Both the position numbers and the translations under genes were made by a program. A stretch of 64,000 nt of DNA, taken from positions 1-64,000 of the IMG/VR virus record IMGVR_UViG_3300032240_001244; one strand, written 5' to 3'. The notes under the pieces were generated by a model, which was given only the letters and a program-made list of their open reading frames with translations, was not told the origin of the DNA and made no database searches. Source of the DNA: a virus. Below, piece after piece: positions 23,743 to 61,852 of the stretch. How positions within the stretch are numbered: the stretch's first letter is position 1; each line of letters opens with the position of its first letter.

Positions 23743-24258
23743 ATGTATTACCCTAAATCAGAAATAGCATTAGTATCAAGTACCACAGGTACACAACTTC
23801 TTGTAAAAAAGACTAAGAAACCATATACAGGGGATTACTATATAACTAATGATGGTAGATTTTTTTCTGGTAAAGAGTATACAGTTACTACTCAAGAATT
23901 AGTACCAATAATAAAAAACTCTATTAAAAACAATGATGTTAAATCTTACGACTTTCACTACGCAATGCCATCTGATGATGATTATAATAAAGGATTCTTT
24001 ATTCGATATACAATAAAAAGAGTAAATAGTGGATTTGAAACTATACTAGAAGTAGACCAAACAGAGTATGAAAGAGCTGTTAAAGATCCCTTATATTCAG
24101 CAGTAAAGTTTTCCTGGAAATTAACAGGACCATTGTACACAACCCAACAAGGAATTCCAGGAATTGTAAACACCAATCAAAAAACATTAGAAGGATTGGA
24201 AAAATCCATACCGGGCATAACAAATTATTTTACAAATTTGGCACAGTACGCAAAATAA
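23743..24258 (+). CDS. Hypothetical protein closing the baseplate operon
   Basis: 171 aa ORF starting MYYPKS. Confidence 0.65.
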   Translation: MYYPKSEIALVSSTTGTQLLVKKTKKPYTGDYYITNDGRFFSGKEYTVTTQELVPIIKNSIKNNDVKSYDFHYAMPSDDDYNKGFFIRYTIKRVNSGFETILEVDQTEYERAVKDPLYSAVKFSWKLTGPLYTTQQGIPGIVNTNQKTLEGLEKSIPGITNYFTNLAQYAK

Positions 24259-24269
24259 CCTTATCTTTG
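24237..24269 (+). promoter_or_regulatory. Bacteroidota-type primary sigma promoter (-33 TTTG, -7 TAnnTTTG)
   Basis: TTTG 24237-24240, 21 nt spacer, TATCTTTG 24262-24269. Confidence 0.7.
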
Positions 24270-24285
24270 TACAAAGGTTATAAAA

Positions 24286-25623
24286 GTGTATTACATAATA
24301 GAGACTGAAGAACAACTTCAGAAGTTTTCTACATACGATTTTACTAATTGTTTCATTGATGTAATTCCATCAAACGACAACTGCCACCCTAAACTGGCAG
24401 ACATTTCCTTATTATACATAAAGCCTTTTAGATCCAGAATGGGATTTATTCTATCCCTAGATCACACAGAAGCGTTTTCATTGTCTAAAGACTCTGTAGA
24501 GGCCTTTATAATCAATAAGCTTGGTAATATTTACGCTATTGATGGAAAGAGGATGAGATACTTCACCAAAAGAGATAACGCCTTATATTGTCTTAAAATG
24601 GCCAAGTATTTAGCTACTGGAGAAGTTATAGACGAGTCTAAATTCAATACAACAGCGCACAACTTCTTTTGTCAGAAGTATGAATATCGTTCTGACATAA
24701 ATAAGATTATCCCGATAGCTAAACATTTTGAAAAGTATGAAAAGCTAGTTGCTTCTATTAAGATAGATCAGGCTTGGTTAAAAACTAAGTACTATAAACT
24801 GTACGGAGATATAGCCCCTAGACTATTTAATTCCATCGAATCTAATGGAATTAGTATAAATAATGACGTATTTTTCATTCACTATACTCCAAAAGAGGCC
24901 TTAATGTCGGTTAAATCAGACAAAACCTATACTCAATATAACCTATATACAGCTACAGGCAGACCATCAAATGCATTTAATGGTATCAATTATGGAGCCA
25001 TTAACAAGACTGATGGTAGCAGAAAGTCTTTTATAGCCGGCAAAGATAGATTGGTTGAGTTTGATTACAGTTCGTATCATATTCGTATATTAGCGTATCA
25101 TATCGGATATGCTTTTGACGACGAAGACATCCATACTCATTTAGCCAAATACTATTTTGACAGTAAAGATATTACTAGATCTCAGTATGAAGAGAGTAAA
25201 GGATTGACTTTCAAACTTTTGTACACGGATTCAATTACAGAAGAGGTAAAAGATATACCTTTCTTTGCAAAAGTAAAAGAGTTTAAAGATCATTTATGGA
25301 GTGTTTATAAAAAACAGGGATATATTGAAAGTTTTTTATCAAAAAGACCAATTAGGGGTATAACTTCTAAGACCCAGGTTCTTCCTTTTATTTTACAAAA
25401 CTATGAAACTGAGAGAAATATTCTTGTTTTAAATGATATTTTTAAATATCTTTGCGATAAGAAGTCTAAATTGATCCTGTATAACTACGACTCTTTTCTT
25501 TTTGATTATAGTAAAGAGGATGGAAAACAGGCACTTTGTGACATACAGATGATTCTGGAACAGGATGGGTACAAAACATCTTGTAAATATGGCCAGAACT
25601 ATCAGGAAATGAAGAATTTATAA
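24286..25623 (+). CDS. Short divergent family A DNA polymerase-like protein
   Basis: TATGRPSN; motif A FDYSSYHIRILA; motif B SKGLTFKLLY; motif C YNYDSFLFD; degenerate N-terminal domain. Confidence 0.8.
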   Translation: MYYIIETEEQLQKFSTYDFTNCFIDVIPSNDNCHPKLADISLLYIKPFRSRMGFILSLDHTEAFSLSKDSVEAFIINKLGNIYAIDGKRMRYFTKRDNALYCLKMAKYLATGEVIDESKFNTTAHNFFCQKYEYRSDINKIIPIAKHFEKYEKLVASIKIDQAWLKTKYYKLYGDIAPRLFNSIESNGISINNDVFFIHYTPKEALMSVKSDKTYTQYNLYTATGRPSNAFNGINYGAINKTDGSRKSFIAGKDRLVEFDYSSYHIRILAYHIGYAFDDEDIHTHLAKYYFDSKDITRSQYEESKGLTFKLLYTDSITEEVKDIPFFAKVKEFKDHLWSVYKKQGYIESFLSKRPIRGITSKTQVLPFILQNYETERNILVLNDIFKYLCDKKSKLILYNYDSFLFDYSKEDGKQALCDIQMILEQDGYKTSCKYGQNYQEMKNL

Positions 25624-25653
25624 AATTTTACCGTTTTTATTAGATATTTATAT

Positions 25654-26088
25654 ATGCACAATAATATTTTTGATTTAACTTACGATTACTTGAACAAGCT
25701 TTTTTGCACGTTTACAAAAAAAGAAGACTTAAATGTCACCATATCTGATATAAAAACCAGATATGAAGTAATCTATTCTAAAATATTCATACTAGAAACG
25801 GACAATGACAATGAATATGTGTGCACATATAACATTGACAGCGACAATATCAATAAGAATAATGTCCTTCCTAACACAATCCTTATGCACCGCCGTAAAG
25901 AATGCAATGTTCTTTATACAATAAACTCTCTGAATAAGCTTATAGAATCTCTTAATGGCGGAGTTAGGGATAATAATTACAAGGTTAACTGGAAAGACTA
26001 TGAAAATAGCATACTGCTTACCCAGAAAGACCAGTTCGTACAACTTAAGACTAAGATCCACGATATAGTTAATGTGGATAAAAAATAA
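25654..26088 (+). CDS. Hypothetical phage protein
   Basis: NKLFCTF, HRRKECNVLYTINSLN; lies between PolA-like gene and SSB. Confidence 0.7.
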   Translation: MHNNIFDLTYDYLNKLFCTFTKKEDLNVTISDIKTRYEVIYSKIFILETDNDNEYVCTYNIDSDNINKNNVLPNTILMHRRKECNVLYTINSLNKLIESLNGGVRDNNYKVNWKDYENSILLTQKDQFVQLKTKIHDIVNVDKK

Positions 26089-26119
26089 TTTGGAATAGTA
26101 AATATATTCCTTACTTTTG
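26089..26119 (+). promoter_or_regulatory. Bacteroidota-type promoter
   Basis: TTTG 26089-26092, 19 nt spacer, TACTTTTG 26112-26119. Confidence 0.65.
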
Positions 26120-26145
26120 TTCTTCACTTTTAAAAAAAACAAGTT

Positions 26146-27018
26146 ATGTCCAAGATTGATTTGATCAAAGAAAGACTGAATAAGCTACAGTCTAAAAACT
26201 CAGGCTCTGCATTTGAAAAGATTGATTTCACAACAATTTTCTGGAAACCAAAGTTAGGTAAGCAAGTAGTTAGGATCTTACCTAGAAAAACAAACAAAGA
26301 CTTCCCATTTTCAGAAGTAAGCTTCCATCAGTACAACATTTTCAAAAAGAATGTTTACAGTCTTGAAAACTTCGGTGAGAAAGATCCGGTAGTTCAATTG
26401 ATGCGTGAACTTTATGATGAGAACACAGAAGAAAGCAAAGACTTGGCTCGTAAGCTTAGGCCTCGTACTAAATTCTTTGCACAAGTATTAGTTCGTGGTG
26501 AAGAAGGTTTGGGTGCTAGACTTTGGGAGTTTAACAAAACTACCTACGAGAAATTGCTTAGCATCATGGCTGATGATGATTTCGGTGATGTATCAGATGT
26601 AACAGAAGGTACTGATCTTACTGTAGAAGGTTACAATGATGTAATTAAGATTGGTAAGCGTGATGTAAACTATGTTGCCGTTAACGTAACTCCAAAGAGA
26701 AACATTTCTTCTATTTCTGAAGATGCTGCTCTGGTACAAAAAGTACTGGAAAATCAAAAAGAGATTACTGAAATTTACAAGAAGTACTCTTATGATGAAA
26801 TTAAGAAGATGCTTCATGATTACATTAATCCACAAGAAGCACAATCTGAAGAAGTCTCAACTCCTACAGTAGAGGCAGCAGCCCCTGTTGCATCAAATGA
26901 TGATGAGGATACTCCACCATTCGATGGTCCTTACAAATCAGTAACTCCTGAAGCAACAGCTCCAAAGCCTAGCTCAGTAGCGTCTAAGTTTGACGATTTA
27001 TTTGGAGAAGAAAATTAA
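26146..27018 (+). CDS. Single-stranded DNA-binding protein (T4 gp32-like)
   Basis: FWKP...VRILP, GEKDPV, EGTDL, acidic C-terminus KFDDLFGEEN. Confidence 0.8.
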   Translation: MSKIDLIKERLNKLQSKNSGSAFEKIDFTTIFWKPKLGKQVVRILPRKTNKDFPFSEVSFHQYNIFKKNVYSLENFGEKDPVVQLMRELYDENTEESKDLARKLRPRTKFFAQVLVRGEEGLGARLWEFNKTTYEKLLSIMADDDFGDVSDVTEGTDLTVEGYNDVIKIGKRDVNYVAVNVTPKRNISSISEDAALVQKVLENQKEITEIYKKYSYDEIKKMLHDYINPQEAQSEEVSTPTVEAAAPVASNDDEDTPPFDGPYKSVTPEATAPKPSSVASKFDDLFGEEN

Positions 27019-27030
27019 AAAAAATAACAT

Positions 27031-28149
27031 ATGGCAGATTCAAAGAACATTAAAGGTGCTGTAGCAAGCGCTTTAGGTAAAGGTGTATCCTTTAATTTAG
27101 AGAATTTTAAGAAATCAAAGAATTTAACTGAAAATATCGCCTATAAGAAACAAGAATGGATTCCATTATCAGAAGCTTTTCAACAGGCAATAAGTTTGCC
27201 AGGACTTCCTCATGGGCACGTTATTAATCTTAGAGGTCATAGTGATACCGGAAAAACTACAGCACTTATCGAAGCAGCTGTTAGCGTGCAGAAGATGGGC
27301 AAACTCCCAGTCTTTATCATCACTGAGATGAAATGGGATTGGAGTCATGCCAAGATCATGGGATTTGAAGTAGATACTAAAGTGAATCAAGTAGTAAATG
27401 AGGATACAGGAGAAGTTACTCAAACAATATCTTATGAAGGCAACTTTATTTACATAGATAAGGATAGTATAACTACCGTAGAAGATGTAGCTGCCTTTAT
27501 CATGGATTTACTTGATGAACAAGCAAAAGGAAAGCTTCCCTATGATCTTGTATTTCTTTGGGATTCAGTAGGATCCTTACCATGTAAGATGTCTATAGAA
27601 TCTAACAAAAATAATAATGAGTGGAACGCAGGAGCTATGTCTCAACAGTTTGGAAATTTTATAAATCAAAGAATTGTTGGTTCTAGAAAAGAAAGCTCTA
27701 AGTATACAAACACGCTTATTGCTGTAAACAAAGTATGGGTAGAAAAACCAACTACATATGGTGAGATGCCTAAGCTAAAGAACAAAGGAGGAAACACAAT
27801 GTTCTTTGACTCTACAATAGTAGTAACTTTTGGTAATTCTACTGGAGCAGGTACCAACAAGATCAAAGCCACTAAAAATGGTAAAGATGTTGAGTTTGCA
27901 AAAAGGACTAAGATTGCAGTGGACAAAAATCATATCAATGGTGTAACTACCACTGGTAAAATTATTGCAACTCCCCATGGATTTATCATAGATGATAAAA
28001 AATATATTGACGCTTATAAGAAAGAACATTCAGCAGAGTGGTTGAAAATTCTTGGAAGCGAAGACTTTGATATAATAGAAGAAATAGATAATGGTGATAT
28101 GATAGATAATCATGGAGATGCTACCATTAATAATTTAGGAAATGAATAA
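27031..28149 (+). CDS. RecA/UvsX-like recombinase
   Basis: Walker A GHSDTGKT, Walker B FLWDSVGSL, KGG..MFFDS. Confidence 0.85.
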   Translation: MADSKNIKGAVASALGKGVSFNLENFKKSKNLTENIAYKKQEWIPLSEAFQQAISLPGLPHGHVINLRGHSDTGKTTALIEAAVSVQKMGKLPVFIITEMKWDWSHAKIMGFEVDTKVNQVVNEDTGEVTQTISYEGNFIYIDKDSITTVEDVAAFIMDLLDEQAKGKLPYDLVFLWDSVGSLPCKMSIESNKNNNEWNAGAMSQQFGNFINQRIVGSRKESSKYTNTLIAVNKVWVEKPTTYGEMPKLKNKGGNTMFFDSTIVVTFGNSTGAGTNKIKATKNGKDVEFAKRTKIAVDKNHINGVTTTGKIIATPHGFIIDDKKYIDAYKKEHSAEWLKILGSEDFDIIEEIDNGDMIDNHGDATINNLGNE

Positions 28150-29179
28150 GGATAGACTCCTTGACATATTTTCTAAACTCAAAAACGATGAGAAGCCTAC
28201 TAATCTACACTACAATAGTAAAGTGTTGATTATAGATGGGATGAATACATTCCTTAGAAGCTTCGCAGTTGTTAATAGGATAAACCTAGCAGGTAATGAT
28301 GTAGGTGGGTTGATTGGATTTTTGAAATCACTTGGACATGCAATAAAACTGTTATCCCCGACTCGTGTAGTAATCGTCTTTGACGGTGAAGGCGGGTCGG
28401 GAAACAGAAAATATCTTTACAGCCAATACAAAGGAAATAGAGATACCGGGAGAATTATGAACTATAAATCCTTCCAGACAAAAGATGCAGAAGATGATTC
28501 CAAATACAACCAGATAACCAGACTGGTAGACTATCTACATTTTTTACCTGTGTCTTTACTATCTTTTGATAAGCTTGAGGCAGATGATGTAATGGGATAT
28601 TTAGCAGGAAGAATCTATAAAGATTATAAGGATTCTCAAGTATACCTCATGTCTTCAGACAATGACTTTATGCAGTTAGTAAACGATAGAGTTAAAGTAT
28701 ATAGTCCAACAAAGAAAAAGATATATGGGGTTGAGAATGTGTTAGAAGATTTTGGTATACATCCAGACAACTTCTTATTGTACAAAGCTCTAGTAGGAGA
28801 CACATCAGACAATATACCTGGAGTAAATGGATTAGGTGAAAAGAATGTAGTGAAGCTTTTTGAATTTATATCAAAGCCAGAAAGAAAAACATTACAGGAC
28901 GTTTATCAGGTATGCGAAAATCCCCCTAAGAAGTCAGCACTATATGAAAGAATATTGAATGTTAGTAAGCAAGTAGAAATTTTCTATAAGATTATGAACA
29001 TCATGGAACCTAATATATCTGAAGATACGATTGTAGAAATTATGGAAAAATACCATACTAAGGCTCCGGCTTTGAATAAGTATGATTTCATGAAACTATA
29101 TAATCATGATAAAATGGGAGATGCTATACCGCATTTAGATCTATGGATAAATTTATATTCCACATTGAACAATTATTAA
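28142..29179 (+). CDS. 5'-3' exonuclease (T4 RNase H/PolI N-terminal type)
   Basis: LIIDGMN, VFDG, YKGNR, EADD, SSDNDFMQL, GDTSDNIPGV.GLG. Confidence 0.92.
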   Translation: MNKDRLLDIFSKLKNDEKPTNLHYNSKVLIIDGMNTFLRSFAVVNRINLAGNDVGGLIGFLKSLGHAIKLLSPTRVVIVFDGEGGSGNRKYLYSQYKGNRDTGRIMNYKSFQTKDAEDDSKYNQITRLVDYLHFLPVSLLSFDKLEADDVMGYLAGRIYKDYKDSQVYLMSSDNDFMQLVNDRVKVYSPTKKKIYGVENVLEDFGIHPDNFLLYKALVGDTSDNIPGVNGLGEKNVVKLFEFISKPERKTLQDVYQVCENPPKKSALYERILNVSKQVEIFYKIMNIMEPNISEDTIVEIMEKYHTKAPALNKYDFMKLYNHDKMGDAIPHLDLWINLYSTLNNY

Positions 29180-29186
29180 ATAAGTT

Positions 29187-30539
29187 ATGACGCAGCAAAG
29201 ATTGACAAGTTATGGACATCAATTTCAAATAAAAGTTCTATACTCCTTACTAAACGACAAACAGTTTCTTCAAAACATAGCAGATGTGATCACAGCTGAG
29301 TATTTTGAATCTCCTGCTCACAAGTGGATTATTGGGACTATTCTTGAGTATTATAGCAAATATCATACGTACCCTACTATGGAAGTTCTCAAGATAGAAC
29401 TTAAGAAGGAGAAGAATGAAGTATTACAAATATCAATAAAGGAAGAACTTAAGCAAGCTTACACAGCAACTCAAGATGATATTGATTATGTAAAAGAAGA
29501 GTTCTTCAACTTTTGTAAAAACCAAAAGCTTAAGGATGCACTATTATCATCCGTAGACCTTCTTACAAGCGGAGAGTTTGAAGGAATCAGAAAGATCATT
29601 GACGAAGCACTGAGAGCAGGTGCTACAAAAGAAATAGGACACGAGTACGATAAGGATATCGAGTCCAGATTTAGAGAAGAAGAAGATAGGAAGATCCCAT
29701 TCCCATGGAAAGTATTTAACGATATTACAGATGGAGGAATAGGTGGAAGTAATCTAATGCTTCTGTTTGCACCTCCTGGTATTGGTAAATCTACTGTGGT
29801 TTGTAATATTGCATCTCACTGTCTTAAGATGGGATACAACGTAGTGTACTACACATTAGAGCTGGATGAAAGATATGTAGGCAAAAAAATTGACTCTATT
29901 CTTACTGGAGTAGAAGTTAAGATGCTAAAGTTTCACCGTAAAGAAGTAGAAACTGCCGTTAAAAACCTTAAGGGAAAGATTGTGATTAAGGAATATTCAC
30001 CTGGCAGGGCCTCCCTAAGCACTATAGAATCCCATATAAAGCAATTAGAAGCCAATAATGACTTCATCCCTGATTTGATTATAATAGACTACCCAGATCT
30101 TTTAAAGCCTCGTAAATCGAGGAAAGAAAGCAAAGAAGAACTAGATGACATCTACACTGATCTAAAAGGAATGGCTAAAGATCTTAAGATCCCATTTGTA
30201 TGCCCCTCTCAGATTAATCGTATGGGAGCCAAGGATGAGATCATTGAAGGAGATAAAGTAGCCGGAAGTTTCCAAAAGATGATGATTGCCGATCTAAGCG
30301 TATCATTGTCTAGGCGTAGAAAAGATAAAATAAATGGCACTGGAAGGTTCCACATCATGAAATCCAGACTAGGTCCAGATGGACAAACTTATGCCGCCAA
30401 AATAGACTTGAACAAAGGGTTTATTGATATATCAGAAGATCTTTATGAGGAAGAGTCTGATGGTGAGGACGTTGGGTCCAAAGGAGACTTTAGTTCAGAT
30501 GATATGTCTTTGCTAAAGAAAAAGTTCCTTAAAGCATAA
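29187..30539 (+). CDS. DnaB-like replicative helicase
   Basis: APPGIGKS, YTLEL, IIIDY, SQINR, KSRLG. Confidence 0.9.
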   Translation: MTQQRLTSYGHQFQIKVLYSLLNDKQFLQNIADVITAEYFESPAHKWIIGTILEYYSKYHTYPTMEVLKIELKKEKNEVLQISIKEELKQAYTATQDDIDYVKEEFFNFCKNQKLKDALLSSVDLLTSGEFEGIRKIIDEALRAGATKEIGHEYDKDIESRFREEEDRKIPFPWKVFNDITDGGIGGSNLMLLFAPPGIGKSTVVCNIASHCLKMGYNVVYYTLELDERYVGKKIDSILTGVEVKMLKFHRKEVETAVKNLKGKIVIKEYSPGRASLSTIESHIKQLEANNDFIPDLIIIDYPDLLKPRKSRKESKEELDDIYTDLKGMAKDLKIPFVCPSQINRMGAKDEIIEGDKVAGSFQKMMIADLSVSLSRRRKDKINGTGRFHIMKSRLGPDGQTYAAKIDLNKGFIDISEDLYEEESDGEDVGSKGDFSSDDMSLLKKKFLKA

Positions 30540-30647
30540 TCTCATAAGCATCAAAAAAGTGGCAAAAAAAAAGCTGAGCAAGTCAACTTTTTTTCCATTT
30601 TCAGTGGGTATTTATTTTTACCTTTACAAAAATTTAAAACAAAAAAC

Positions 30648-32501
30648 ATGGAATTAGGATCGGAGATACTAAGTCAAATTACTATTTTTTCAAAGTACGC
30701 CAAGTACATCCCTGAAGTAAAAAGAAGAGAAACATGGGAAGAAATAGTAACTAGATATGAGGTTATGTTAATGCAAAAGTTCCCAACTTTAAAGAAAGAA
30801 ATAATGGGGAACGCTAGTTATATAGTGGATAAAAAAGTACTCCCATCAATGAGAGCCTTACAGTTTTCAGGAACAGCAGCTGAAGTAAACAACGCACGTA
30901 TATACAACTGCTGCTACCTTCCAATGGATAGCGTGCATTGTTTTTCAGAATCTATGTTTCTATTGCTTGGAGGTACCGGAGTAGGATATTCCGTACAGTT
31001 TCAACACGTAGAAAAGCTACCAGAAATTATAAAGCCAGTAAAACAAAAAAGATATTTAGTACAGGATAGTATTATTGGATGGGCTGATGCTGTAAAAGTA
31101 TTGATGAAATCCTATTTTGGTAAAGGAGCTAAACCCACATTTGACTACAGAGATGTACGTCCTAAAGGAGCTAGGCTTATTACTGCAGGCGGTAAAGCAC
31201 CTGGACCAGAACCTCTTAAGATCTGTCTTACGCATATAGAAGCTATCTTAGATCGTAAACAAAACGGTGAGAAGCTGACTACCTTAGAAGTACACGATAT
31301 CATGTGCCATATTGCTAATAGTGTATTATCAGGAGGCATTAGAAGGGCTGCTATGATTGCATTGTTTAGCCACGATGATGAAGAAATGCTTACTTGTAAA
31401 TACGGTAATTGGTGGGAGCTGAATGAACAAAGAGGAAGGTCAAATAACTCTGCAGTATTGGAAAGAGGTCAGATTACAGAAGAACAGTTTAAAGCTTTGT
31501 GGAAGAAGATAGAGTTGAGTAATTCTGGAGAGCCAGGATTCTATTGGACAAAGAATGCTGAGTGGGGAACTAACCCATGCTGCGAAATAGCTTTGCGTCC
31601 ATATCAATTCTGTAACCTGTGTGAGGTTAATGTATCTGATATCAAAGATGAACAGGATCTATTTGATAGAGTGCGTGTAGCTGCGTTCTTTGGAACTCTA
31701 CAAGCGTCATTCACTGATTTCCACTACCTCCGTCCTATATGGCAGAAAACTACTGAAAAAGATGCATTGCTTGGAATAGGCATGACAGGTATAGGAAGTG
31801 GTGAGATCCTTAAATACGATCTTGAAAAAGCTGCTGAGATTGCAAAAGAAGTAAATGCAGAGTACGCAGATCTTATAGGTATTAACAGAGCGGCTCGTGT
31901 AACTTGCATAAAGCCATCAGGAACAACATCTTGTGTATTGGGTACTGCTTCTGGAATACATGCATGGCATAATGACTATTATCTCAGAACAGTAAGATTT
32001 AATAAGAGTGAAGATATTGCTAAGTATCTTATTGCAAACCATCCTGAGATGTGTGAAGACGATGTGTTGAGATCTCATGATACATTGTGTGCAAGAATCC
32101 CTATCAAAGCACCAGAAGGATCAATAATGAGAAGTGAAACTCCAATAGAGTTGTTGGAAAGAGTAAAGCACTTCTCAGTTAATTGGATTAAGAGTGGCCA
32201 TAGGAATGGATATAATACTCACAACGTATCAGCTACCGTATCTCTTAAAGAAGATGAATGGCTGCCAGTAGGAGAATGGATGTGGAAAAACAGGGAACAT
32301 TATAACGGTTTGTCAGTACTACCTTATTGGGGAGGTACTTATCAACAGGCTCCTTTTGAAGATATTACTAAAGAGGAGTATGAAGAAAGAGTAAGCCGTC
32401 TTACTTCTATGGACTTGACTAGTATTGTAGAAGAAGATGATACTGTAAACTTTGGGGCGATCGCAGCTTGCAGTGGTGCCAACTGTAGCGTAGAACAGTA
32501 A
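30648..32501 (+). CDS. nrdJ: Class II (adenosylcobalamin-dependent) ribonucleotide reductase
   Basis: LPSMRALQ, NCC, GGTGVG, GGIRRAA, TNPCCEI, CNL, KPSGT, C-terminal ACSGANC; no beta subunit nearby. Confidence 0.9.
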   Translation: MELGSEILSQITIFSKYAKYIPEVKRRETWEEIVTRYEVMLMQKFPTLKKEIMGNASYIVDKKVLPSMRALQFSGTAAEVNNARIYNCCYLPMDSVHCFSESMFLLLGGTGVGYSVQFQHVEKLPEIIKPVKQKRYLVQDSIIGWADAVKVLMKSYFGKGAKPTFDYRDVRPKGARLITAGGKAPGPEPLKICLTHIEAILDRKQNGEKLTTLEVHDIMCHIANSVLSGGIRRAAMIALFSHDDEEMLTCKYGNWWELNEQRGRSNNSAVLERGQITEEQFKALWKKIELSNSGEPGFYWTKNAEWGTNPCCEIALRPYQFCNLCEVNVSDIKDEQDLFDRVRVAAFFGTLQASFTDFHYLRPIWQKTTEKDALLGIGMTGIGSGEILKYDLEKAAEIAKEVNAEYADLIGINRAARVTCIKPSGTTSCVLGTASGIHAWHNDYYLRTVRFNKSEDIAKYLIANHPEMCEDDVLRSHDTLCARIPIKAPEGSIMRSETPIELLERVKHFSVNWIKSGHRNGYNTHNVSATVSLKEDEWLPVGEWMWKNREHYNGLSVLPYWGGTYQQAPFEDITKEEYEERVSRLTSMDLTSIVEEDDTVNFGAIAACSGANCSVEQ

Positions 32502-32526
32502 ATTTTTTAAATAATGCATTTTCAAA

Positions 32527-32706
32527 GTGTCGAACAGTAAATTACAAAAAGGGATTGATTATTATATAGATGAGCAGACTGGGTACATCGTACTCACTGC
32601 TCTCTATCTTTCCCAAAGAGGAGTATGCTGTGGTAACGGTTGTAAAGAATGCTGTTATGATCCAAAATGGACAAAAGGAAATAAAAATTTGATACAACAA
32701 GAATAA
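32527..32706 (+). CDS. Small Cys-rich protein (DUF5522-like), absent from ORF track
   Basis: Own translation, GTG start, 59 aa: ...GIDYYIDEQTGYIVLTALYLSQRGVCCGNGCKECCYDPK... Confidence 0.7.
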   Translation: MSNSKLQKGIDYYIDEQTGYIVLTALYLSQRGVCCGNGCKECCYDPKWTKGNKNLIQQE

Positions 32707-32718
32707 TATCTATATTTG
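32688..32718 (+). promoter_or_regulatory. Bacteroidota-type promoter
   Basis: TTTG 32688-32691, 19 nt spacer, TATATTTG 32711-32718. Confidence 0.65.
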
Positions 32719-32732
32719 TTAAAATTAATGTT

Positions 32733-32930
32733 ATGACTATATACATTGTCTTTCTTGTTTTAAATCTTCTCGGAATGGGTTTTCTTTTTTTTGTATATGA
32801 AAAACAGAAACAAATAAACACAGAGTTTTTAAAAAATGCAATTATTCATAATGCTGTTTTAGAAATGCTAAAAGAAAAAACAGATGAGTTAGAAAAGCTT
32901 ATAGCTGATACAAATAAAGATAAAAAATAA
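32733..32930 (+). CDS. Small membrane protein
   Basis: N-terminal TM helix then coiled coil. Confidence 0.6.
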   Translation: MTIYIVFLVLNLLGMGFLFFVYEKQKQINTEFLKNAIIHNAVLEMLKEKTDELEKLIADTNKDKK

Positions 32931-32937
32931 AAAGGTT

Positions 32938-33363
32938 ATGCTAGTAAAAATAAAAAAATTACATCCAGAAGCTGTAATTCCTTCCTATGCAAAAGATGGA
33001 GATGCTGGAATGGATCTGGTAGCTGTAAGAAAAGAAGATCTATCTCCTACTCAAGTAAAGTATTACACAGGTCTTGCAATTGAAATCCCTTATGGATTTG
33101 TAGGATTGATATTCCCAAGATCTTCCATCTTTAAAGCAGGATTATCATTGAGCAATGCAGTTGGAGTTATTGATAGTGGGTACAGAGGAGAGATTATGGC
33201 GGTGTTCAATAAAAAGTTTGGTATGAACTTAACTAACTATGAAGTCGGAGATAGAGTAGCACAGATAATGATACTGCCATATCCAGTGGTAACTTTTGTT
33301 GAATCAGAAGAATTGACAGATACAGATAGAGGATCCGGTGGTTTTGGCAGTACAGGAAAATAA
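32938..33363 (+). CDS. dut: dUTPase (trimeric)
   Basis: AGMDL, PRSS, GVIDSGYRGE, RVAQ, RGSGGFGSTG. Confidence 0.97.
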   Translation: MLVKIKKLHPEAVIPSYAKDGDAGMDLVAVRKEDLSPTQVKYYTGLAIEIPYGFVGLIFPRSSIFKAGLSLSNAVGVIDSGYRGEIMAVFNKKFGMNLTNYEVGDRVAQIMILPYPVVTFVESEELTDTDRGSGGFGSTGK

Positions 33364-33378
33364 AATAAAATAAAGGTT

Positions 33379-35685
33379 ATGAATGAAAAGAAGTATGTCA
33401 CGGTAGACACACCGCAGACACTAAGAGATATGGTTAAACATATCAAAGCATTTGATATAATAGCTTTTGATACAGAGACTACAAGTTTAAATCCAAGAAA
33501 AGGAAAGATAATAGGATTGTCAGTATCAGGAGAAGTAGGAGTAGGATACTATATGCCAACAATGGTATTCAAAGATGGCGAATTAAAGGATGATGCTATA
33601 TACGGAGAGAGTTGTCATGAGTTAGCTAAAAAAGTGCTTACTATTTTATGCAGTAAGAAATTGATAGGGCACAATCTTTCTTTTGATTCTAGGTTTGTAA
33701 AGGAGTTTTATGGTATAGATATTGTTCCTTCTATATATGCAGATACAATGTTACTAGTCCATACAGTAGCAGAAGAAGGTGCAGGAGATGGATTTGGCAG
33801 TTCTTTTGGTCTTAAAGACATTGCTAAGGCTATACAAGAACATATTGGGTTAGACATGGAGAAAGAGGCCAACGAAGAACAAGTAGAGCTTAAAGAGTCT
33901 ATAAAATCCAATGGAGGCACTACCACTAAAGAAAACTATGAGATCTGGAAGGCAGACCTGCCTATACTGTCCAAGTACGCTTGCGCAGACACAGACCTTA
34001 CACTCAGAGTATATAACTACTATATAGAGAAACTAAAATCAGAAAATTTAGAGAAATTCTTTTTTGAAGATGAAGTAATGCCTTTGTATAAAGAAGTTAC
34101 TATTCCAATGGAAAGTAACGGTATGATGCTTGATATGGATCTTATAGTACAGTCTAGAGAAGAAATTATAAAAGACTTAGAAGAATATAAAAGCCTTGTT
34201 ATTAAAACTCTACTTAAAGATCCTAGAGTAAAAGAGTGGGTAATTGATAAAGCTTTAGAAAAGTTTCCTCCTACACATAAAGGTAGCTACGCACAGCAAC
34301 TAATAACTGAATCAGGATATACTTTACCAAAGTCTGAAAAGACTGGTAAGTATACAATGAATGCTGCAACTCTTAAGACTTTACAAGAAGGTTCTATTAA
34401 AGAATTTTTAACAACTGGCAACATGGATGTTCTTGATGCTGATCTAGCTGTTAAAGTTAGCATGAAGCTATGGAAAGAAAGCCAGGATGGAGATTTTTTT
34501 AATATACAGTCTAAAGATCACTTAGGCAGTATTGCTTTTACAGCTTTGGGAATGGAACCTATATCTGCTACAGATAAAGGAAAAGATAAGTTTGATGATG
34601 ACTTCATTCAGTCTATTGCGGAAAAACATGAGTGGGCTAAGAATCTTCGCATTTATAATAAATTGCTAAAGATAAAGTCTACTTACATGGATAGGTTCCT
34701 GGATAAACAGGAAGACGGCATGTATTATTTCTACTACAAACAACACGCAACAGTATCAGGAAGGTACGGATCAGATGCACAACAACTTCCCAGACCTAAA
34801 GAAGAAGGAGAAGAGGATCCTATAGTATTGAAATATAATAATATGATTCGTGCGTTCTTTGTTTGCAAACCGGGAACAGTGTTTATAGATTGCGATTATG
34901 AAAGCTTGGAACCAAAAGTATTCTCTCACGTGGCTGATGATGAAGGATTAAAAGACATCTTTAGAAATGGATGGGATTTTTATTCTACAATCGCTATAAA
35001 AACAGAGAAACTGGATCAGTACTCTCCTGACAAGAAAGCCCCTAACTATTTAAAAAAGATGGCTAATAACATAAGACAGAAAGCTAAGGCTTACTCTCTT
35101 GGAATTCCTTACGGAATGGGCTCATATGCATTAGGTAAGAATATAGATGTATCAACTAAAGAAGCTCAAAAGCTTATTGATGGATATCTTAATGGGTTTC
35201 CTAATTTAAAAAAATGGATGGAAGATTCTAAAGCTTTTGTAAAAGAGCATGGATATATAAAAACACAGGTAGGGAGAATTCGCCATTTACCAAAAGTTTC
35301 ATATCTTTACAAAAAGTTTGGAGATTCTTTATTACAATGGGATTTTCAAAATAAATTGGAAGATCAGCTTGGAAAAGAGTTAGTATCCAATATGTCTAAA
35401 GATTATAAGAATGGACTTAACAATTCACTTAACGTACAGATACAGGGACTAGCTGCATCTATTGTAAACAGGGCTGCTATATCCATAAACAGAGAATTTA
35501 AAAAAGCTGGTATAAAAGGACAAGTAGTAGCTCAAATTCATGACCAATTGGTTATGGAAGTAGAGGAGGAAAGGTCAGAGGAAGCAGCAGCTATTGTTAA
35601 AGATAGGATGGAGAATACTACAAGATTGTCTCTTGATCTAGTAGCACCACCATCTTTGGCACACAATTTGAGAGACGGACACTAA
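33379..35685 (+). CDS. polA: Family A DNA polymerase with 3'-5' exonuclease
   Basis: Exo motifs FDTET, GHNLSFD, YACAD; polymerase motifs DYESLE, KAKAYSLGIPYG, QIHDQL. Confidence 0.95.
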   Translation: MNEKKYVTVDTPQTLRDMVKHIKAFDIIAFDTETTSLNPRKGKIIGLSVSGEVGVGYYMPTMVFKDGELKDDAIYGESCHELAKKVLTILCSKKLIGHNLSFDSRFVKEFYGIDIVPSIYADTMLLVHTVAEEGAGDGFGSSFGLKDIAKAIQEHIGLDMEKEANEEQVELKESIKSNGGTTTKENYEIWKADLPILSKYACADTDLTLRVYNYYIEKLKSENLEKFFFEDEVMPLYKEVTIPMESNGMMLDMDLIVQSREEIIKDLEEYKSLVIKTLLKDPRVKEWVIDKALEKFPPTHKGSYAQQLITESGYTLPKSEKTGKYTMNAATLKTLQEGSIKEFLTTGNMDVLDADLAVKVSMKLWKESQDGDFFNIQSKDHLGSIAFTALGMEPISATDKGKDKFDDDFIQSIAEKHEWAKNLRIYNKLLKIKSTYMDRFLDKQEDGMYYFYYKQHATVSGRYGSDAQQLPRPKEEGEEDPIVLKYNNMIRAFFVCKPGTVFIDCDYESLEPKVFSHVADDEGLKDIFRNGWDFYSTIAIKTEKLDQYSPDKKAPNYLKKMANNIRQKAKAYSLGIPYGMGSYALGKNIDVSTKEAQKLIDGYLNGFPNLKKWMEDSKAFVKEHGYIKTQVGRIRHLPKVSYLYKKFGDSLLQWDFQNKLEDQLGKELVSNMSKDYKNGLNNSLNVQIQGLAASIVNRAAISINREFKKAGIKGQVVAQIHDQLVMEVEEERSEEAAAIVKDRMENTTRLSLDLVAPPSLAHNLRDGH

Positions 35686-35700
35686 ATAAAATAAAAAAAA

Positions 35701-35997
35701 ATGAGTACATTAGTTGCATTACACGACAAAGTCATTCTTAAAAAGATTGACACAGAAGACAAAATGGTAGGTGGCATTATTGTGCCGGATATGGGGGCTG
35801 AAAAATCTAACTACTTTGAAGTAGTAAGCGCAGGTCCTGGCATGTATGATACGCAAAATGGTAAGTACTTTCCTATGCATGTAGAAGTGGGAGACACAGT
35901 AGTTGTCCCAAAAGCAGTAGTAACACAGATCTTAGTAGACAGGGACGAGTACTACGTATGCCGTGAAGTAGAAATCCTTTCAATTATTAAAGATTAA
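35701..35997 (+). CDS. groES: Co-chaperonin GroES
   Basis: LHDKVIL, GGIIVPD, EVVSAGPG, VEVGDTV. Confidence 0.9.
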   Translation: MSTLVALHDKVILKKIDTEDKMVGGIIVPDMGAEKSNYFEVVSAGPGMYDTQNGKYFPMHVEVGDTVVVPKAVVTQILVDRDEYYVCREVEILSIIKD

Positions 35998-36248
35998 TGG
36001 ATATAACATATTCTATAACAGAATTTGTATGGGTTAAAAAAGATAATTCTTTTTATGCCGATGCGGATAGATTACATCCCGAAGGAGATTACAAGTGTAC
36101 TTTCCCAAATGGTAGGAAGAAGTTTTATATTAAAAATAATAATACAAAAGGATTTAGAAGATTTATATTAAATAAGGAATGCGGTACCGTTTTACAGTTT
36201 ATAAGTGAAGATGGTATATTATGTAACATACAAACAAAAACAAAATGA
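35997..36248 (+). CDS. Hypothetical protein between groES and groEL
   Basis: 83 aa ORF overlapping stop/start codons on both sides. Confidence 0.6.
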   Translation: MDITYSITEFVWVKKDNSFYADADRLHPEGDYKCTFPNGRKKFYIKNNNTKGFRRFILNKECGTVLQFISEDGILCNIQTKTK

Positions 36249-39925: not shown

Positions 39926-41365
39926 ATGAAAGCAGGTTACATTAAAAAAGAAGACAGGAAAAAAATCCTATTCATAGGGGATGATATTAGGTTTTTCTCA
40001 GGGATTGCAACCATATCTAGAGAATTGGTGTTAGGAACATCTCATGCATTTAACTACGCTTGTATAGGTGGTGCCATAGATCATCCGGATAAAAACAAAA
40101 GAATGGATCTATCACAGTCTACAAGTGATATAGCAGGCATACCAGATGCTTCTGTTATACTATACCCTACTAATGGATATGGAACTCAAGATTTAATAAG
40201 GCAATTAATTAATATAGAAAAGCCTGACTTGTTAGTGTTCATTACGGATCCTAGGTACTATGAATGGTTGTTTAGATTAGAACAAGAGATCAGAAAGACC
40301 ATTCCTATGGTATATATAAACATTTGGGATTGTGAACCAGCTCCTCTGTATAATAAAAACTACTACAGATCTTGTGACACTCTACTGTCAATATCTAAAC
40401 AAACAAAGATATTAAATGAGGTAGTATTGGGAGAGTATGCTAAGGATAAGACTATTAAATATTTTCCACACGGTATTAACGAAAACAACTTCTACCCAAT
40501 AAGAAAAGGACATGATCTGTATCCAAAACTACAAGCATTTAAAAACAATCTTCTTAAAGATAAGGATTTTGATTTTGTAGTTTTATTCAATAGCAGAAAC
40601 ATTAGAAGAAAGTCTATACCAGATACTATACTAGCGTTTAGACACTTCTTAGAACAATTACCTTCAGAAAAAGCGGATAAGTGTTGTTTAGTATTACATA
40701 CTCACAGAGTAGATGATAACGGCACAGATCTACCAGCAGTAATTGATTTATTTATGGGAGATAAAAAAGATCAAATAATATTTTCAAATCCTGGGGAAGG
40801 AATTGAGTATATGAATTTGTTGTACAATTCTTCTGATGCTACTATACTTCTATCTTCTAATGAGGGATGGGGATTATCTCTTACGGAGTCTATGATGTGC
40901 GGTAAAATGATTATTGCAAATGTAACTGGTGGTATGCAAGATCAAATGAGATTTGAGGATGAAAATGGTAACTGGATTGAGTTTGATGAGTCGTTCTGCA
41001 CTAATCATTTGGGAAAATATAAAAAATGTGGAGAGTGGGCTATTCCAGTATTCCCCTGTGGAATTAGCATACAAGGATCACCACCCACTCCATACATCTC
41101 AGATGATAGAGTAGATTTTAGAGATGCATCTAAAGCTATAATGGATCTGTACAATATGGGTGTAGAGGAAAGAGATAGAAAAGGATTAGCAGCTAGAAAT
41201 TGGGTAACCTCTTCAGAATCTATGATGAGTGCAAGAGCTATGTCAGAAAATTTTATTGCAGCTATAAATCACACTCTGGATAATTGGAAGCCTAGAGAAA
41301 GGTTTCACATTAAAAAAATAGAAGAAAGACCATTGAAAACTATTAAACATTATATATCTTTGTAA
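39926..41365 (+). CDS. Glycosyltransferase, GT-B fold (GT4-like)
   Basis: RNIRRK, NEGWGLSLTESMMCG. Confidence 0.88.
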   Translation: MKAGYIKKEDRKKILFIGDDIRFFSGIATISRELVLGTSHAFNYACIGGAIDHPDKNKRMDLSQSTSDIAGIPDASVILYPTNGYGTQDLIRQLINIEKPDLLVFITDPRYYEWLFRLEQEIRKTIPMVYINIWDCEPAPLYNKNYYRSCDTLLSISKQTKILNEVVLGEYAKDKTIKYFPHGINENNFYPIRKGHDLYPKLQAFKNNLLKDKDFDFVVLFNSRNIRRKSIPDTILAFRHFLEQLPSEKADKCCLVLHTHRVDDNGTDLPAVIDLFMGDKKDQIIFSNPGEGIEYMNLLYNSSDATILLSSNEGWGLSLTESMMCGKMIIANVTGGMQDQMRFEDENGNWIEFDESFCTNHLGKYKKCGEWAIPVFPCGISIQGSPPTPYISDDRVDFRDASKAIMDLYNMGVEERDRKGLAARNWVTSSESMMSARAMSENFIAAINHTLDNWKPRERFHIKKIEERPLKTIKHYISL

Positions 41366-41374
41366 TCAATTGTT

Positions 41375-42640
41375 ATGAATAAACTTACTTGCGTTGTTTC
41401 TTGTCCAATAGATATTATATCAGGTTATGGATCCCGTAGTCGTGATTTTGTAAAAGCTTTGATAAAAGCTAAAGGTGAAGAGTGGGATATTAAAATACTA
41501 TCTCAAAGATGGGGAGAGTGTCCATATGGAGCTTTAAGTAGTGATATACCGGAAGAGTTAGACCTCATTAATAGAGTTATACCTCAGATGCAAAGTCAAC
41601 CTGATATTTGGTTTCAAATAACAGTAGCTAATGAATTTGAGCCTGTAGGAAAGGTTAGCATAGGAGTATCCGCTTTAGTAGAAACTACAATACTCCCAGC
41701 TGAACTATTGGAAGGTTTGAATAGAATGAATTTTAATATAGTGTCTTCTAACTTTGTAAAAGATGTAGCAGAGAAGACTAGCTTTGATAGGATAGATCAG
41801 AATACAAACCAAAAGCAAGGTACTGTAAGGTTGAGTAAACCTATTGAAGTTTTGTTTGAAGGCGTTGATACAAACAAGTATAAAAGATTAGAAAAGTCTA
41901 ATTTTGATTTATCCGAAATAAAAGAAGAGTTTTGTTTTTTATCTGTAGGACATTGGTTAACTGGTGAGATCGGGGAAGATAGAAAACAATTAACAACTTT
42001 AATCAAAGCGTTCCTCACTGCATTTAAAGATAAAAAGAAACGTCCTGCTCTTATACTTAAAACAAGTTTAGCAGGTTTTAGTATTATAGAAGAAGAAAAG
42101 ATTTTAGATAATATAGATGCTATTAGAAAAACTGTTGGAGGAGATATGCCAAACATTTATCTTTTATACGGTGAATTAACTGAGGAAGAGATGAACAACC
42201 TTTACAACCATGAAAAAGTAAAAGCCTTTGCTTTGGTAGGTAATGAAGGGTTTGGAAGACCCTACTTAGAGTTCTCCGCAGCTTCTAGCAAACCTGTTAT
42301 AACATCTCCTTTCAGTGGACATATTGATTTTTTAAACGAAGAGTTTAATATCTTTGTACAAGGAAAAGTAGAACAGCTGCACCCATCAGCCGCTAATCAG
42401 TTCTTGATAAAAGAATCAAGTTGGTTTAAAGCAGATCCTAAGTCAGTTGAAGATAGTTTAAAAGCTGTGTATGAAAACTATAACAAGTACGTAGACAATG
42501 CAAAGAGACAAGGACATCAATCAAGGACTCAATTTAGTTATGATAAAATGGTAGAGAGGTTATCTGAAATACTAGAAAAGAATGTTCCTAAGTTGAGTGT
42601 ACCTCAAATGATAAATTTGCCAAAGCTTAAAACTTTGTAA
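41375..42640 (+). CDS. Glycosyltransferase, GT-B fold (GT4-like)
   Basis: SGYG, EDRK, EGFGRPYLEF, SGHIDF. Confidence 0.85.
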   Translation: MNKLTCVVSCPIDIISGYGSRSRDFVKALIKAKGEEWDIKILSQRWGECPYGALSSDIPEELDLINRVIPQMQSQPDIWFQITVANEFEPVGKVSIGVSALVETTILPAELLEGLNRMNFNIVSSNFVKDVAEKTSFDRIDQNTNQKQGTVRLSKPIEVLFEGVDTNKYKRLEKSNFDLSEIKEEFCFLSVGHWLTGEIGEDRKQLTTLIKAFLTAFKDKKKRPALILKTSLAGFSIIEEEKILDNIDAIRKTVGGDMPNIYLLYGELTEEEMNNLYNHEKVKAFALVGNEGFGRPYLEFSAASSKPVITSPFSGHIDFLNEEFNIFVQGKVEQLHPSAANQFLIKESSWFKADPKSVEDSLKAVYENYNKYVDNAKRQGHQSRTQFSYDKMVERLSEILEKNVPKLSVPQMINLPKLKTL

Positions 42641-42641
42641 T

Positions 42642-42778
42642 ATGACAAGTAAAGAATTCCGCCTAATAAAGGCATACCTCAATCGGAAGAGGTTAAACAA
42701 AAAATAAGTGATAGCAAGAAAGGAAAGCCGTGAACAGAGGCAAGAAGATTAGCTCAAAAAAATAAAAAACAAAAATAG
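42642..42778 (+). pseudogene. Remnant of a NUMOD3-type homing endonuclease
   Basis: Frame from 42656 reads IPPNKGIPQSEEVKQKISDSKKGKP*TEARRLAQKNKKQK*; internal TGA, no in-frame start. Confidence 0.65.
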
Positions 42779-42779
42779 C

Positions 42780-43085
42780 ATGGATAGCAAAAGTTTTATA
42801 AGTTGGCTAAAGGGTTTTACAGAAGCCTGTCCAGAATTTCATCCAACTCCTAAACAGTGGGATAGATTAAAAGAAGTGCTGAACGAAGTAGAAGACCATG
42901 AAGAAGATAATGGATTAGTTTGGGAAATAGATGATTTTGAACCTGAGAACCCTGAGCCTTCTCCTCAATCTCAGTATCCTTTTGATCCACAACTATATCG
43001 TAATCCTAAAGGATTTGGATACTATACAAATAGCACACTGGATAAAACAACTCCAGAAGAAACAAAAAAACAATTATTAGATTAA
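42780..43085 (+). CDS. Hypothetical protein
   Basis: FISWLKGF...PTPKQW..LKE.L. Confidence 0.65.
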   Translation: MDSKSFISWLKGFTEACPEFHPTPKQWDRLKEVLNEVEDHEEDNGLVWEIDDFEPENPEPSPQSQYPFDPQLYRNPKGFGYYTNSTLDKTTPEETKKQLLD

Positions 43086-43086
43086 T

Positions 43087-43530
43087 ATGCAAGATCAATT
43101 AACAACCTGCAGAAAATGTGGAAGTCCTCTTTGTTACGAAAGACATATAGACGGTACTATTAGCTGGGACTGTTTGCAATGTGGATTCACTACAAACACA
43201 CTCCTCTTAGAAAACACAGAGGCTGTAATGTCTTACGAATCTATGATACCTAATTTATTTAGAGATATAAAATACATAGACAAAGATGGTTTCGTATGGT
43301 ACCCAACAACTATCACTAAAGATGGAGTAGGTATTGTATTTGCTGATGGTACTTCTAAAGATAATTGGAAGTGGGCGTTTGCTCCACACATACCAGTAGC
43401 TGAGGAAGAAAAAGAGAGATTTAAGAAGACGGACGGCACTTACCACCAATATAAAACAGATATGAAGCATGTCCTTCATTTCGATCAAGAATATTTTTCA
43501 AGGGCTTTAGAAGCCGCAGGACTAATTTAA
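43087..43530 (+). CDS. Zinc-ribbon hypothetical protein
   Basis: CRKCGS...CLQCGF. Confidence 0.7.
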   Translation: MQDQLTTCRKCGSPLCYERHIDGTISWDCLQCGFTTNTLLLENTEAVMSYESMIPNLFRDIKYIDKDGFVWYPTTITKDGVGIVFADGTSKDNWKWAFAPHIPVAEEEKERFKKTDGTYHQYKTDMKHVLHFDQEYFSRALEAAGLI

Positions 43531-43535
43531 ATGTT

Positions 43536-45983: not shown

Positions 45984-45985
45984 TA

Positions 45986-47283: not shown

Positions 47284-47284
47284 T

Positions 47285-49829: not shown

Positions 49830-49836
49830 AAAAAAT

Positions 49837-61748: not shown

Positions 61749-61822
61749 GGACTTATAGCTCAGTCGGTTAGAGCATCTGACTCATAATCAGAGGGTCCCT
61801 GGTTCAAGCCCAGGTGAGTCCA
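61749..61822 (+). tRNA. tRNA with CAT anticodon, probably Ile2 (lysidine) rather than Met
   Basis: GGACTTA/TGAGTCC acceptor, GCTC/GAGC D-stem, TCTGA-CTCATAA-TCAGA, CCTGG-TTCAAGC-CCAGG; no initiator features; CCA not encoded. Confidence 0.92.
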
Positions 61823-61852
61823 CTAAAATTTATTAAACATAAAATAAAAACT

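Follow-up and report, generated by a model that had tools for sequence, protein, structure and literature searches.

In a 64,000-nucleotide stretch of viral DNA (hereafter the window), which is the first 64 kb of the 87,181-base IMG/VR record IMGVR_UViG_3300032240_001244 (completeness about 51% according to CheckV), a gene at 24286-25623 (+) encodes a 445-amino-acid (aa) protein with a GTG start that is, by sequence, fold and family match, a miniature family-A DNA polymerase. It belongs to divPolA1, a family already in the literature, and differs from it in nothing essential. With a probability of roughly 55%, we propose that divPolA1 is an accessory, distributive DNA polymerase of a replication module that also encodes a protein that binds single-stranded DNA (SSB), the recombinase UvsX, a 5′-3′ exonuclease (FEN) and the helicase DnaB; we infer its activity, its role, its partnership with a neighbouring 144-aa gene (orf144) and its sugar selectivity. 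Two properties of the family are apparently undiscussed in print, namely a His/Tyr/Ser pocket that is found family-wide and the obligate 144-aa neighbour. For the window itself the result is modest, in that it adds one more divPolA1 gene.

The family was named by Yutin, Tolstoy, Mutz, Wolf, Krupovic and Koonin (2024, Virol J 21:200, PMC11348598). According to the parts of that paper devoted to the family, divPolA1 occurs in 14 phages of 155-190 kb, consisting of the type example, Flavobacterium phage vB_FspM_immuto (hereafter immuto), and its relatives, which carry in addition a regular polymerase from family A, B or C. The same parts describe conserved replication genes downstream, retained palm residues, a truncated thumb and the replacement of all three catalytic Asp residues of the exonuclease domain. 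The gene in the window resembles the immuto gene in most of these respects. It matches immuto gp001, which is gene 1 in four immuto records, with 33.4% identity over 98% of the query (tblastn, E 1e-67); its product has the same size of about 445 aa, keeps the palm residues, and has a truncated thumb and a probably degenerate exonuclease domain; and it is followed by genes for SSB, recombinase, FEN and DnaB, with a regular polymerase co-occurring. Whereas the family as published comprises 14 phages, our searches yielded 1901 cluster representatives at 50% identity.

In the literature searched, the term ‘divPolA1’ occurs only in Yutin et al. 2024 and its preprint, and a literature search on steric gate, family A, histidine and ribonucleotide incorporation listed no match that concerns divPolA1. 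The word ‘steric’ is absent from the text of PMC11348598, figures and supplements aside. Sections 13 and 14 of that paper hold no discussion of the 144-aa neighbour, although its figures or supplements might name it or display the His, and the passages of the 2023 reclassification of family A (PMC10201439) that we consulted do not mention Flavobacterium phages.

The first-pass annotation of the window, made from its letters alone, had remarked that this protein keeps both catalytic Asp residues, has His in place of the Glu that forms the steric gate of Escherichia coli Pol I, and has an altered motif C. All three observations are borne out by alignment. Motif A, DYSSYHIRILA (25063-25095, +), contains the catalytic D260 and has H265 in the place of the steric gate. 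In a pairwise alignment with Taq polymerase, DYSSYH falls on DYSQIE and H265 on the gate residue E615, and a profile of 40 homologues aligned with the Klenow fragment (E 1.5e-9) agrees, pairing D260 with D705 and H265 with E710. In motif B, YEESKGLTFKLLY (25186-25224, +), the same profile shows that Y301 replaces R754, while K305, F309 and Y313 are the retained equivalents of K758, F762 and Y766. In motif C, YNYDSF (25480-25497, +), the catalytic D402 corresponds to D882, with Y401 standing for H881 and S403 for E883. The Taq alignment places D260, Y301, Y401, D402 and S403 in the same way. A T-G-R-P-S motif at residues 224-228 (24955-24969, +), whose R226 is invariant, is the counterpart of TGRLSS in Pol I. 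Thus, of the features of Pol I, divPolA1 retains the catalytic Asp pair, the TGR motif and the equivalents of K758, F762 and Y766, but differs by having His for E710, Tyr for R754, Tyr for H881 and Ser for E883; instead of the canonical family-A signature of a Glu gate, RxxxK and HDE, it has His, YxxxK and YDS. To our knowledge, Glu at the steric gate is kept in all known family-A DNA polymerases.

These unusual residues are not peculiar to the window. In a word-indexed protein search, 2080 sequences reached E<=0.001; those listed, 120 in all, are nearly all of about 445 aa and 41-90% identical to the query, and one of them, with 89% identity, is encoded on a contig of 159,420 bases. An exhaustive profile search gave the 1901 cluster representatives at E<=1e-3 (682 of them at <=1e-30), and almost all of the 150 that were listed are 415-470 aa long. 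We aligned the query and these 150 representatives using MAFFT, and the following counts refer to the resulting 151 sequences. D260 and R226 are present in all 151, K305 and D402 in 150, Y401 in 149, Y313 in 147 and F309 in 144. The gate position is His in 149 sequences and Gln in the other two. Position 403 is more variable (S in 114, A in 34, G in 2), as is position 301 (Y in 106, I in 14, R in 9). The narrower homologue alignment has His at the gate in 40 of 40 sequences, and among 78 IMG/VR loci the gate is His in 76, Gln in one and a gap in one, with D402 kept in all 78. The immuto homologue carries the equivalent motifs MDFDGYHLRLLC and YTYDAF, and His together with YDA recurs in distant members, namely a 408-aa protein of Microcystis phage Mel-JY01 and a 452-aa open reading frame (ORF) of the uncultured phage LR756508 (484 kb). 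Another match, of 964 aa and from a faecal virome, is a canonical PolA with Glu and HDE. The gate position is thus far from freely variable, a finding that would have counted against the first-pass annotation, and the His is no chance occurrence but a defining and selected feature of the divPolA1 family.

Three pocket residues that are important in Klenow, E710, R754 and E883, are changed in divPolA1, which would speak for a protein with little or no catalysis that has a structural or regulatory part in the replisome, as one of its subunits. However, the metal-binding Asp pair, R226, K305, F309 and Y313 are each kept in 144-151 of the 151 sequences, a pattern expected only if catalysis is under selection. 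We therefore take the catalytic core of divPolA1 to be under selection, and give the idea of a dead subunit very little credence.

How the altered pocket treats its substrates is less straightforward. Tyr and Phe gates exclude the 2′-OH in other polymerase families, and in human PrimPol a Tyr-to-His change reportedly disables the steric gate (PMC6362072). The imidazole of H265 could still exclude the 2′-OH, or it could relax the gate. Mutant data on Klenow indicate that this enzyme would be crippled without R754 and E883. The equivalents of both are lost from divPolA1, which suggests that its handling of the triphosphate also differs from that of Pol I.

The predicted structure places divPolA1 among DNA polymerases. 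By sequence, the 445-aa protein barely reaches the Pfam family DNA_pol_A (residues 206-315, scoring 34.4 bits where the cut-off is 34.3), and a Pfam scan of it returned no RNA polymerase match. An AlphaFold2 model made with the 40-sequence alignment has a predicted local distance difference test score (pLDDT) of 92.7 and a predicted template modelling score (pTM) of 0.90, and the leading Foldseek matches are all large fragments of the Pol I type (1kfd, TMq 0.81). We also compared the model with all representative chains in a VIA structural search. The matches include Pol I of phage G20c (Z 24.7), the Klenow fragment 1d9d (Z 24.5, root-mean-square deviation 3.0, 429 residues aligned, residues 1-443 of the model on 329-928 of Klenow), Pol nu (Z 23.8), DpoZ (Z 22.7) and T7 DNA polymerase (Z 21.6), whereas the RNA polymerases of yeast mitochondria (Z 12.7), T7 (Z 10.3) and N4 (vRNAP, Z 8.6) score far lower. 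The aligned lengths are 398-433 residues for the DNA polymerases, compared with 220-253 for the RNA polymerases.

The likeness to Klenow thus extends over the whole chain, with the exception of the thumb. About 75 residues, at approximately 237-310 of the Klenow chain, have no counterpart in divPolA1 (the profile alignment jumps from about 236 to about 311), and the AlphaFold2 model has no long helices across residues 199-245. In further contrast to Pol I, the DxE motif is missing and the 5′-3′ exonuclease is encoded by a separate gene. T7-type single-subunit RNA polymerases have the palm and fingers core in common with divPolA1, and motif C of T7 RNA polymerase has Ser after the catalytic Asp (HDS). 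However, their Z-scores of 8.6-12.7 over 220-253 residues give no sign of a closer kinship, and they have a promoter-binding N-terminal domain where divPolA1 has an exonuclease fold. As modelled, divPolA1 is therefore a miniaturised Klenow fragment, and not an enzyme of the RNA polymerase type.

The N-terminal domain (residues 1 to about 185; 24286-24840, +) has the DEDD/RNase D fold of a 3′-5′ exonuclease, its VIA matches including RNase D (Z 12.2, model residues 1-226) and ExnV1 (Z 11.5, model residues 1-189). It lacks a conserved DxE across the family: position 6 is E in 108 and D in 20 of the 151 sequences, and position 8 is variable. The domain has a conserved set of its own, consisting of H34 (144 sequences), H60 (148), E62 (E in 100, D in 49), K146 (130) and E149 (130), along with E6. 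Comparison by sequence did not place these residues on the exonuclease site of Klenow: a profile of the N-terminal 190 residues found no PDB sequence at E<=10, and alignment with the window's full-length PolA using hhalign gave probabilities of 0.2 for this profile and 1.7 for the full-length one. The start of the protein is supported by 38 of the 40 aligned homologues, which share the N-terminal start column of the 445-aa ORF.

Another group of small family-A-like polymerases, TV-Pol (Iyer, Abhiman and Aravind 2008, PMC2579912), resembles divPolA1 in being minimal and in belonging to mobile elements and viruses, with a role in priming proposed from gene context. As characterised in the passages of that paper on TV-Pol, these proteins lack an exonuclease domain and have a two-helix thumb, an RxxxK fingers motif and a link or fusion to a D5-like helicase. 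By contrast, divPolA1 has an exonuclease fold, reads YxxxK in the fingers, is nearly devoid of a thumb and neighbours a gene for DnaB, and thus lacks the features that define TV-Pol.

The gene neighbourhood of divPolA1 is conserved as well. Directly downstream lies orf144 (25654-26088, +), a conserved gene that we consider, on the basis of synteny, a candidate partner. We examined gene order from both sides, in the best 80 of more than 577 IMG/VR matches to divPolA1 and the best 80 of more than 586 matches to orf144; both sets are skewed to closer relatives. The first set has orf144 directly after divPolA1 in 76 of 80 loci, the four exceptions having less than 400 nt of downstream sequence. 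In the reverse direction, divPolA1 lies directly upstream in all 73 orf144-seeded loci that have at least 600 nt of upstream sequence, with a spacing of 5-71 nt in 71 loci and of about 590 nt in the other two. In distant loci, orf144 is better preserved (47-58% identity) than divPolA1 itself (33-39%). On these genomic grounds, orf144 is a probable partner of divPolA1.

Comparisons of the orf144 product gave few leads. The protein has no Pfam match, and among PHROG families it matches only phrog_6147, of unknown function (E 0.00084). In its model (pLDDT 87.2), the DSSP string mixes alpha and beta elements; Foldseek found no match in the PDB at E<=0.001, and the best VIA hit (Z 6.7 over 61 residues), to ferredoxin-like domains, is not convincing. 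No OB-fold chain is among the listed structural matches, which does not exclude such a fold. The comparison with BFVD gave only an uncharacterised homologue of the protein, and the ESM Atlas gave no usable match. A complex prediction for divPolA1 and orf144 scored 0.00 against a mark of 0.32, a result that weighs neither for nor against binding. Searches for longer, possibly fused forms of orf144 (281-2000 aa) and of divPolA1 (791-2255 aa, E<=1e-10) found none, which is weak evidence.

The two genes head a block of replication genes. In the window, they are followed by those for a gp32-like SSB (26146-27018, +), a UvsX/RecA-like recombinase (27031-28149, +), the FEN (28142-29179, +) and a DnaB-like replicative helicase (29187-30539, +). 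SSB, UvsX, FEN and DnaB come after divPolA1 wherever an IMG/VR locus extends far enough, and the order is the same in immuto and in Microcystis phage Mel-JY01. A regular, full-length PolA of 768 aa lies further downstream (33379-35685, +), where the first-pass annotation had placed a full PolA. It is recognised by Pfam with 222.3 bits for DNA_pol_A and 48.9 bits for the 3′-5′ exonuclease domain, and has its gate Glu within DCDYESLEP and the exonuclease motif FDTET. This enzyme has peculiarities of its own: in motif B, KAKAYSLGIPYG, the residue that corresponds to Klenow F762 is Leu, and motif C reads IHDQ, not HDE.

A regular PolA accompanies divPolA1 in this record, in immuto and in the relatives that we label G001, G006, G007, G011 and G012, while G010 and G016 have a family B polymerase in its place. 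Pfam DNA_pol_A has no match at all in G010, although that record is 100% complete. PolC (PF07733) was found in none of five records. In line with the published picture, the regular polymerase is therefore swappable and divPolA1 constant. In another relative, G002 (an IMG/VR record of 147,153 bases, 86% complete), the sole signal of a regular PolA is a 203-aa frame at 48053-48538 that covers Pfam positions 204-380 and could be part of a split or interrupted polymerase gene.

The constancy of divPolA1 raises the question of which polymerase replicates the genome. Conceivably, divPolA1 is itself the main replicase, perhaps with orf144 as a processivity subunit, and the exchangeable PolA, PolB or PolC serves in repair or in another role. 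This arrangement would fit the position of divPolA1 as the constant head of the conserved block and its pairing with orf144, which is obligate in both directions; the regular polymerase, moreover, varies in family and sits in a less conserved neighbourhood, as the divPolA1 sections of PMC11348598 describe. However, divPolA1 has no proofreading motif and almost no thumb, and the equivalents of R754 and E883 are lost. A regular polymerase of full length, exonuclease domain included, is also retained in every sufficiently sampled relative. We hence regard a role of divPolA1 as the main replicase as decidedly unlikely.

A further alternative, which builds on a suggestion of the first-pass annotation, turns on whether these phages have a primase. 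In this account, the His gate admits ribonucleoside triphosphates (rNTPs), or mixed or 2′-modified nucleotides, so that the enzyme would make or extend primers in the manner of a primase or of Pol alpha, possibly together with orf144. The first-pass annotation drew on the apparent lack of a primase in the window. A search of the whole 87,181-base record did indeed find no Toprim_4, Zn_ribbon_DnaG, Toprim_2, Prim-Pol or immuto-primase homologue, but the record is only about 51% complete, and more complete relatives do encode a DnaG-like primase. In immuto, whose deposited genome is complete (160,410 bases), gp091 is annotated as a DNA primase of 306 aa and contains, besides a Zn ribbon and Toprim regions, a DNAG_N region that scores 26.6 bits (cut-off 26). 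Altogether, a DnaG-like primase is present in all four divPolA1 relatives that are at least 68% complete, namely immuto, G010 (100%), G002 (86%) and G004 (68%), the homologues in the latter three being 41-48% identical to that of immuto. Toprim_2 and a direct search with the immuto primase matched 4 of 9 records, which are the four most complete; the five records of 40-55% completeness gave no match, and our own record was negative. Prim-Pol of the archaeo-eukaryotic primase type (PF09250) was found in none of five records.

The location of the primase gene is informative as well. In all four relatives it lies about 56-66 kb upstream of divPolA1 (counted across the ends for immuto), whereas our record has 24.3 kb upstream of divPolA1. 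ORFs flanking the primase in the four relatives have no tblastn match (E<=1e-5) in our 87 kb, as expected if the primase region is not in the record. Detection is a separate matter. At NC_055915.1 104446-105366, Toprim_4 (PF13662) misses the annotated DnaG-like primase of immuto, and Toprim_2 and DNAG_N detect it only near their cut-offs. A negative Toprim_4/zf-CHC2 scan is therefore poor evidence that a primase is absent. On the simplest reading of these sequences, the primase gene of this phage would lie in the missing half of its genome, and the apparent lack of a primase in the window is an artefact of an incomplete record. The argument from a missing primase thus fails, and we set aside the replacement of a primase as the leading explanation, whereas the altered gate on which the first-pass annotation had also built is correctly aligned and fixed throughout the family.

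Primer making by divPolA1 nevertheless has points in its favour besides the family-wide change from Glu to His. Motif C reads YDS or YDA in place of HDE, which is reminiscent of HDS in T7-type RNA polymerases; and a small gene is obligately linked to divPolA1. A precedent for priming by such a pair is CCPol-MP, the PolA-SSB primases described by Bebel et al. 2020 (PMC7581432) and Rice 2023 (PMC10061031), which demonstrate, in the portions of these papers on the complex, that an A-family polymerase with a small partner can prime. According to the same portions, CCPol is likewise a truncated A-family polymerase with a shortened thumb, a trait that it shares with T7-like RNA polymerases (PMC7581432), and it likewise has a partial or dead exonuclease domain, a small gene directly downstream and a helicase nearby.

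However, the systems differ in several ways. As reported in those portions, CCPol retains the steric-gate Glu equivalent to E710 (E174) as well as F762 (F225) and primes with deoxyribonucleoside triphosphates (dNTPs; PMC7581432), so priming does not call for an altered gate, while divPolA1 has His at the gate and keeps the Phe. The partner of CCPol is an OB-fold SSB, whereas the orf144 model is of mixed alpha/beta type, with no OB-fold chain among its listed matches. CCPol-MP furthermore belongs to mobile elements of Bacillota with serine recombinases, and divPolA1 to large phages with DnaB and a DnaG-like primase. We do not favour an OB-fold pairing of the CCPol-MP type for orf144, whose model matched nothing convincingly. 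More generally, primer making is opposed by the DnaG-like primase in four of the four relatives that are at least 68% complete and by a fold far nearer to DNA polymerases than to RNA polymerases. A residue as bulky as His could also still block the 2′-OH, and no forms fused to a primase or helicase were found, although that is weak evidence. Taken together, we consider it unlikely that divPolA1 makes or extends primers from ribonucleotides or modified nucleotides.

We favour instead the accessory DNA polymerase proposed at the outset. The proposal draws on the Klenow-like scaffold with its intact two-metal site, the primer-terminus Arg of TGRPS and the Lys, Phe and Tyr of the O-helix; on the lack of a proofreading motif and of nearly all the thumb; on the fixed place of divPolA1 ahead of the SSB-UvsX-FEN-DnaB block; and on the presence of a full replicase beside it and, in relatives, of a DnaG-like primase. 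According to this proposal, divPolA1 would depend on template and primer, would not proofread, and would carry out distributive, by default error-prone, short-patch synthesis at the fork. It might fill Okazaki gaps, in which case divPolA1 and the separate FEN would amount to a split Pol I, and/or it might extend recombination intermediates made by UvsX. Priming would be left to a DnaG-like primase whose gene would lie beyond the sequence that the record covers.

Several considerations weigh against this proposal. With the equivalents of R754 and E883 lost, the activity or the substrate of divPolA1 may differ from those of a normal dNTP-using enzyme, and the invariant His could relax sugar exclusion and not keep it. 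No primase was found in our own record, and its presence is deduced only from relatives whose divPolA1 is 33-48% identical to that of the window. The roles in gap filling and in D-loop extension are read solely from the gene neighbourhood. The divPolA1 sections of PMC11348598 place divPolA1, but not the regular polymerases, in a conserved replication context, which may leave room for divPolA1 as the principal replicase. Finally, biochemical work on any member of the family was not found in the literature searched.

A bolder reading would make divPolA1 and orf144 a two-subunit polymerase whose changed pocket, with its His gate and without R754 and E883, confers relaxed or altered sugar or phosphate selectivity, a ‘Pol-alpha-like’ primer extender that hands over to whatever main replicase the phage has. 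Such an enzyme may, for example, incorporate ribonucleoside monophosphates or use RNA-primed or unusual nucleotide substrates. We regard this reading as a long shot. If true, it would provide a natural family-A DNA polymerase scaffold without a Glu gate, in a group that ranks among the most abundant aquatic phages.

Whichever of these accounts applies, divPolA1 stands first in the replication module of large aquatic phages whose hosts are Flavobacteriia and, in at least one case, a cyanobacterium, and its fixed His and its lost R754 and E883 equivalents constitute a natural experiment on sugar selection and triphosphate binding. Were sugar selectivity kept, the His would represent a type of steric gate that is new to family A; were it relaxed, these phages would incorporate ribonucleotides into DNA or have an unusual mode of primer extension.

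With regard to the surroundings of the gene, a megablast search with 24000-36000 found no near-identical phage record. A match to TAnnTTTG, the -7 promoter element of Bacteroidota, lies 17 nt before the GTG (TATCTTTG, 24262-24269, +). Because the motif is so common in the window (103 occurrences, versus 83.3 +/- 9.0 in shuffled sequences), this single site carries little weight and is weak evidence of a promoter. A second match is found at 26112-26119, 27 nt ahead of the SSB start. The interval from the stop codon of the 171-aa gene upstream to the divPolA1 GTG also has a 7-bp inverted repeat, TAACCTT ... AAGGTTA, with an 11-nt loop (24256-24280, +), which overlaps the first TAnnTTTG match.

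The first-pass annotation had also suggested that the polymerase handles modified nucleotides. Pfam scans of 20 further ORFs at 39.9-62.9 kb revealed no recognisable enzyme that modifies nucleotide bases or sugars, and we set the idea aside because this part of the window gave no supporting enzyme. Immuto has a 7-deazaguanine (DpdA/Que) set, but nothing ties that set to divPolA1. The region contains a long series of genes for glycosyltransferases (families 1, 2 and 17) and methyltransferases (39926-50679, +), followed by a gene for a non-specific DNA/RNA endonuclease at 49197-49829 (+); the annotation of immuto has a similar glycosyltransferase cluster. Beyond it are genes for a protein with a WYL-domain match (51518-52309, +), a YceI-like protein (58551-59087, +; 157 bits) and a HATPase_c-domain protein (59090-59974, +), and the window has one tRNA-Met (CAT) gene, at 61749-61823 (+).

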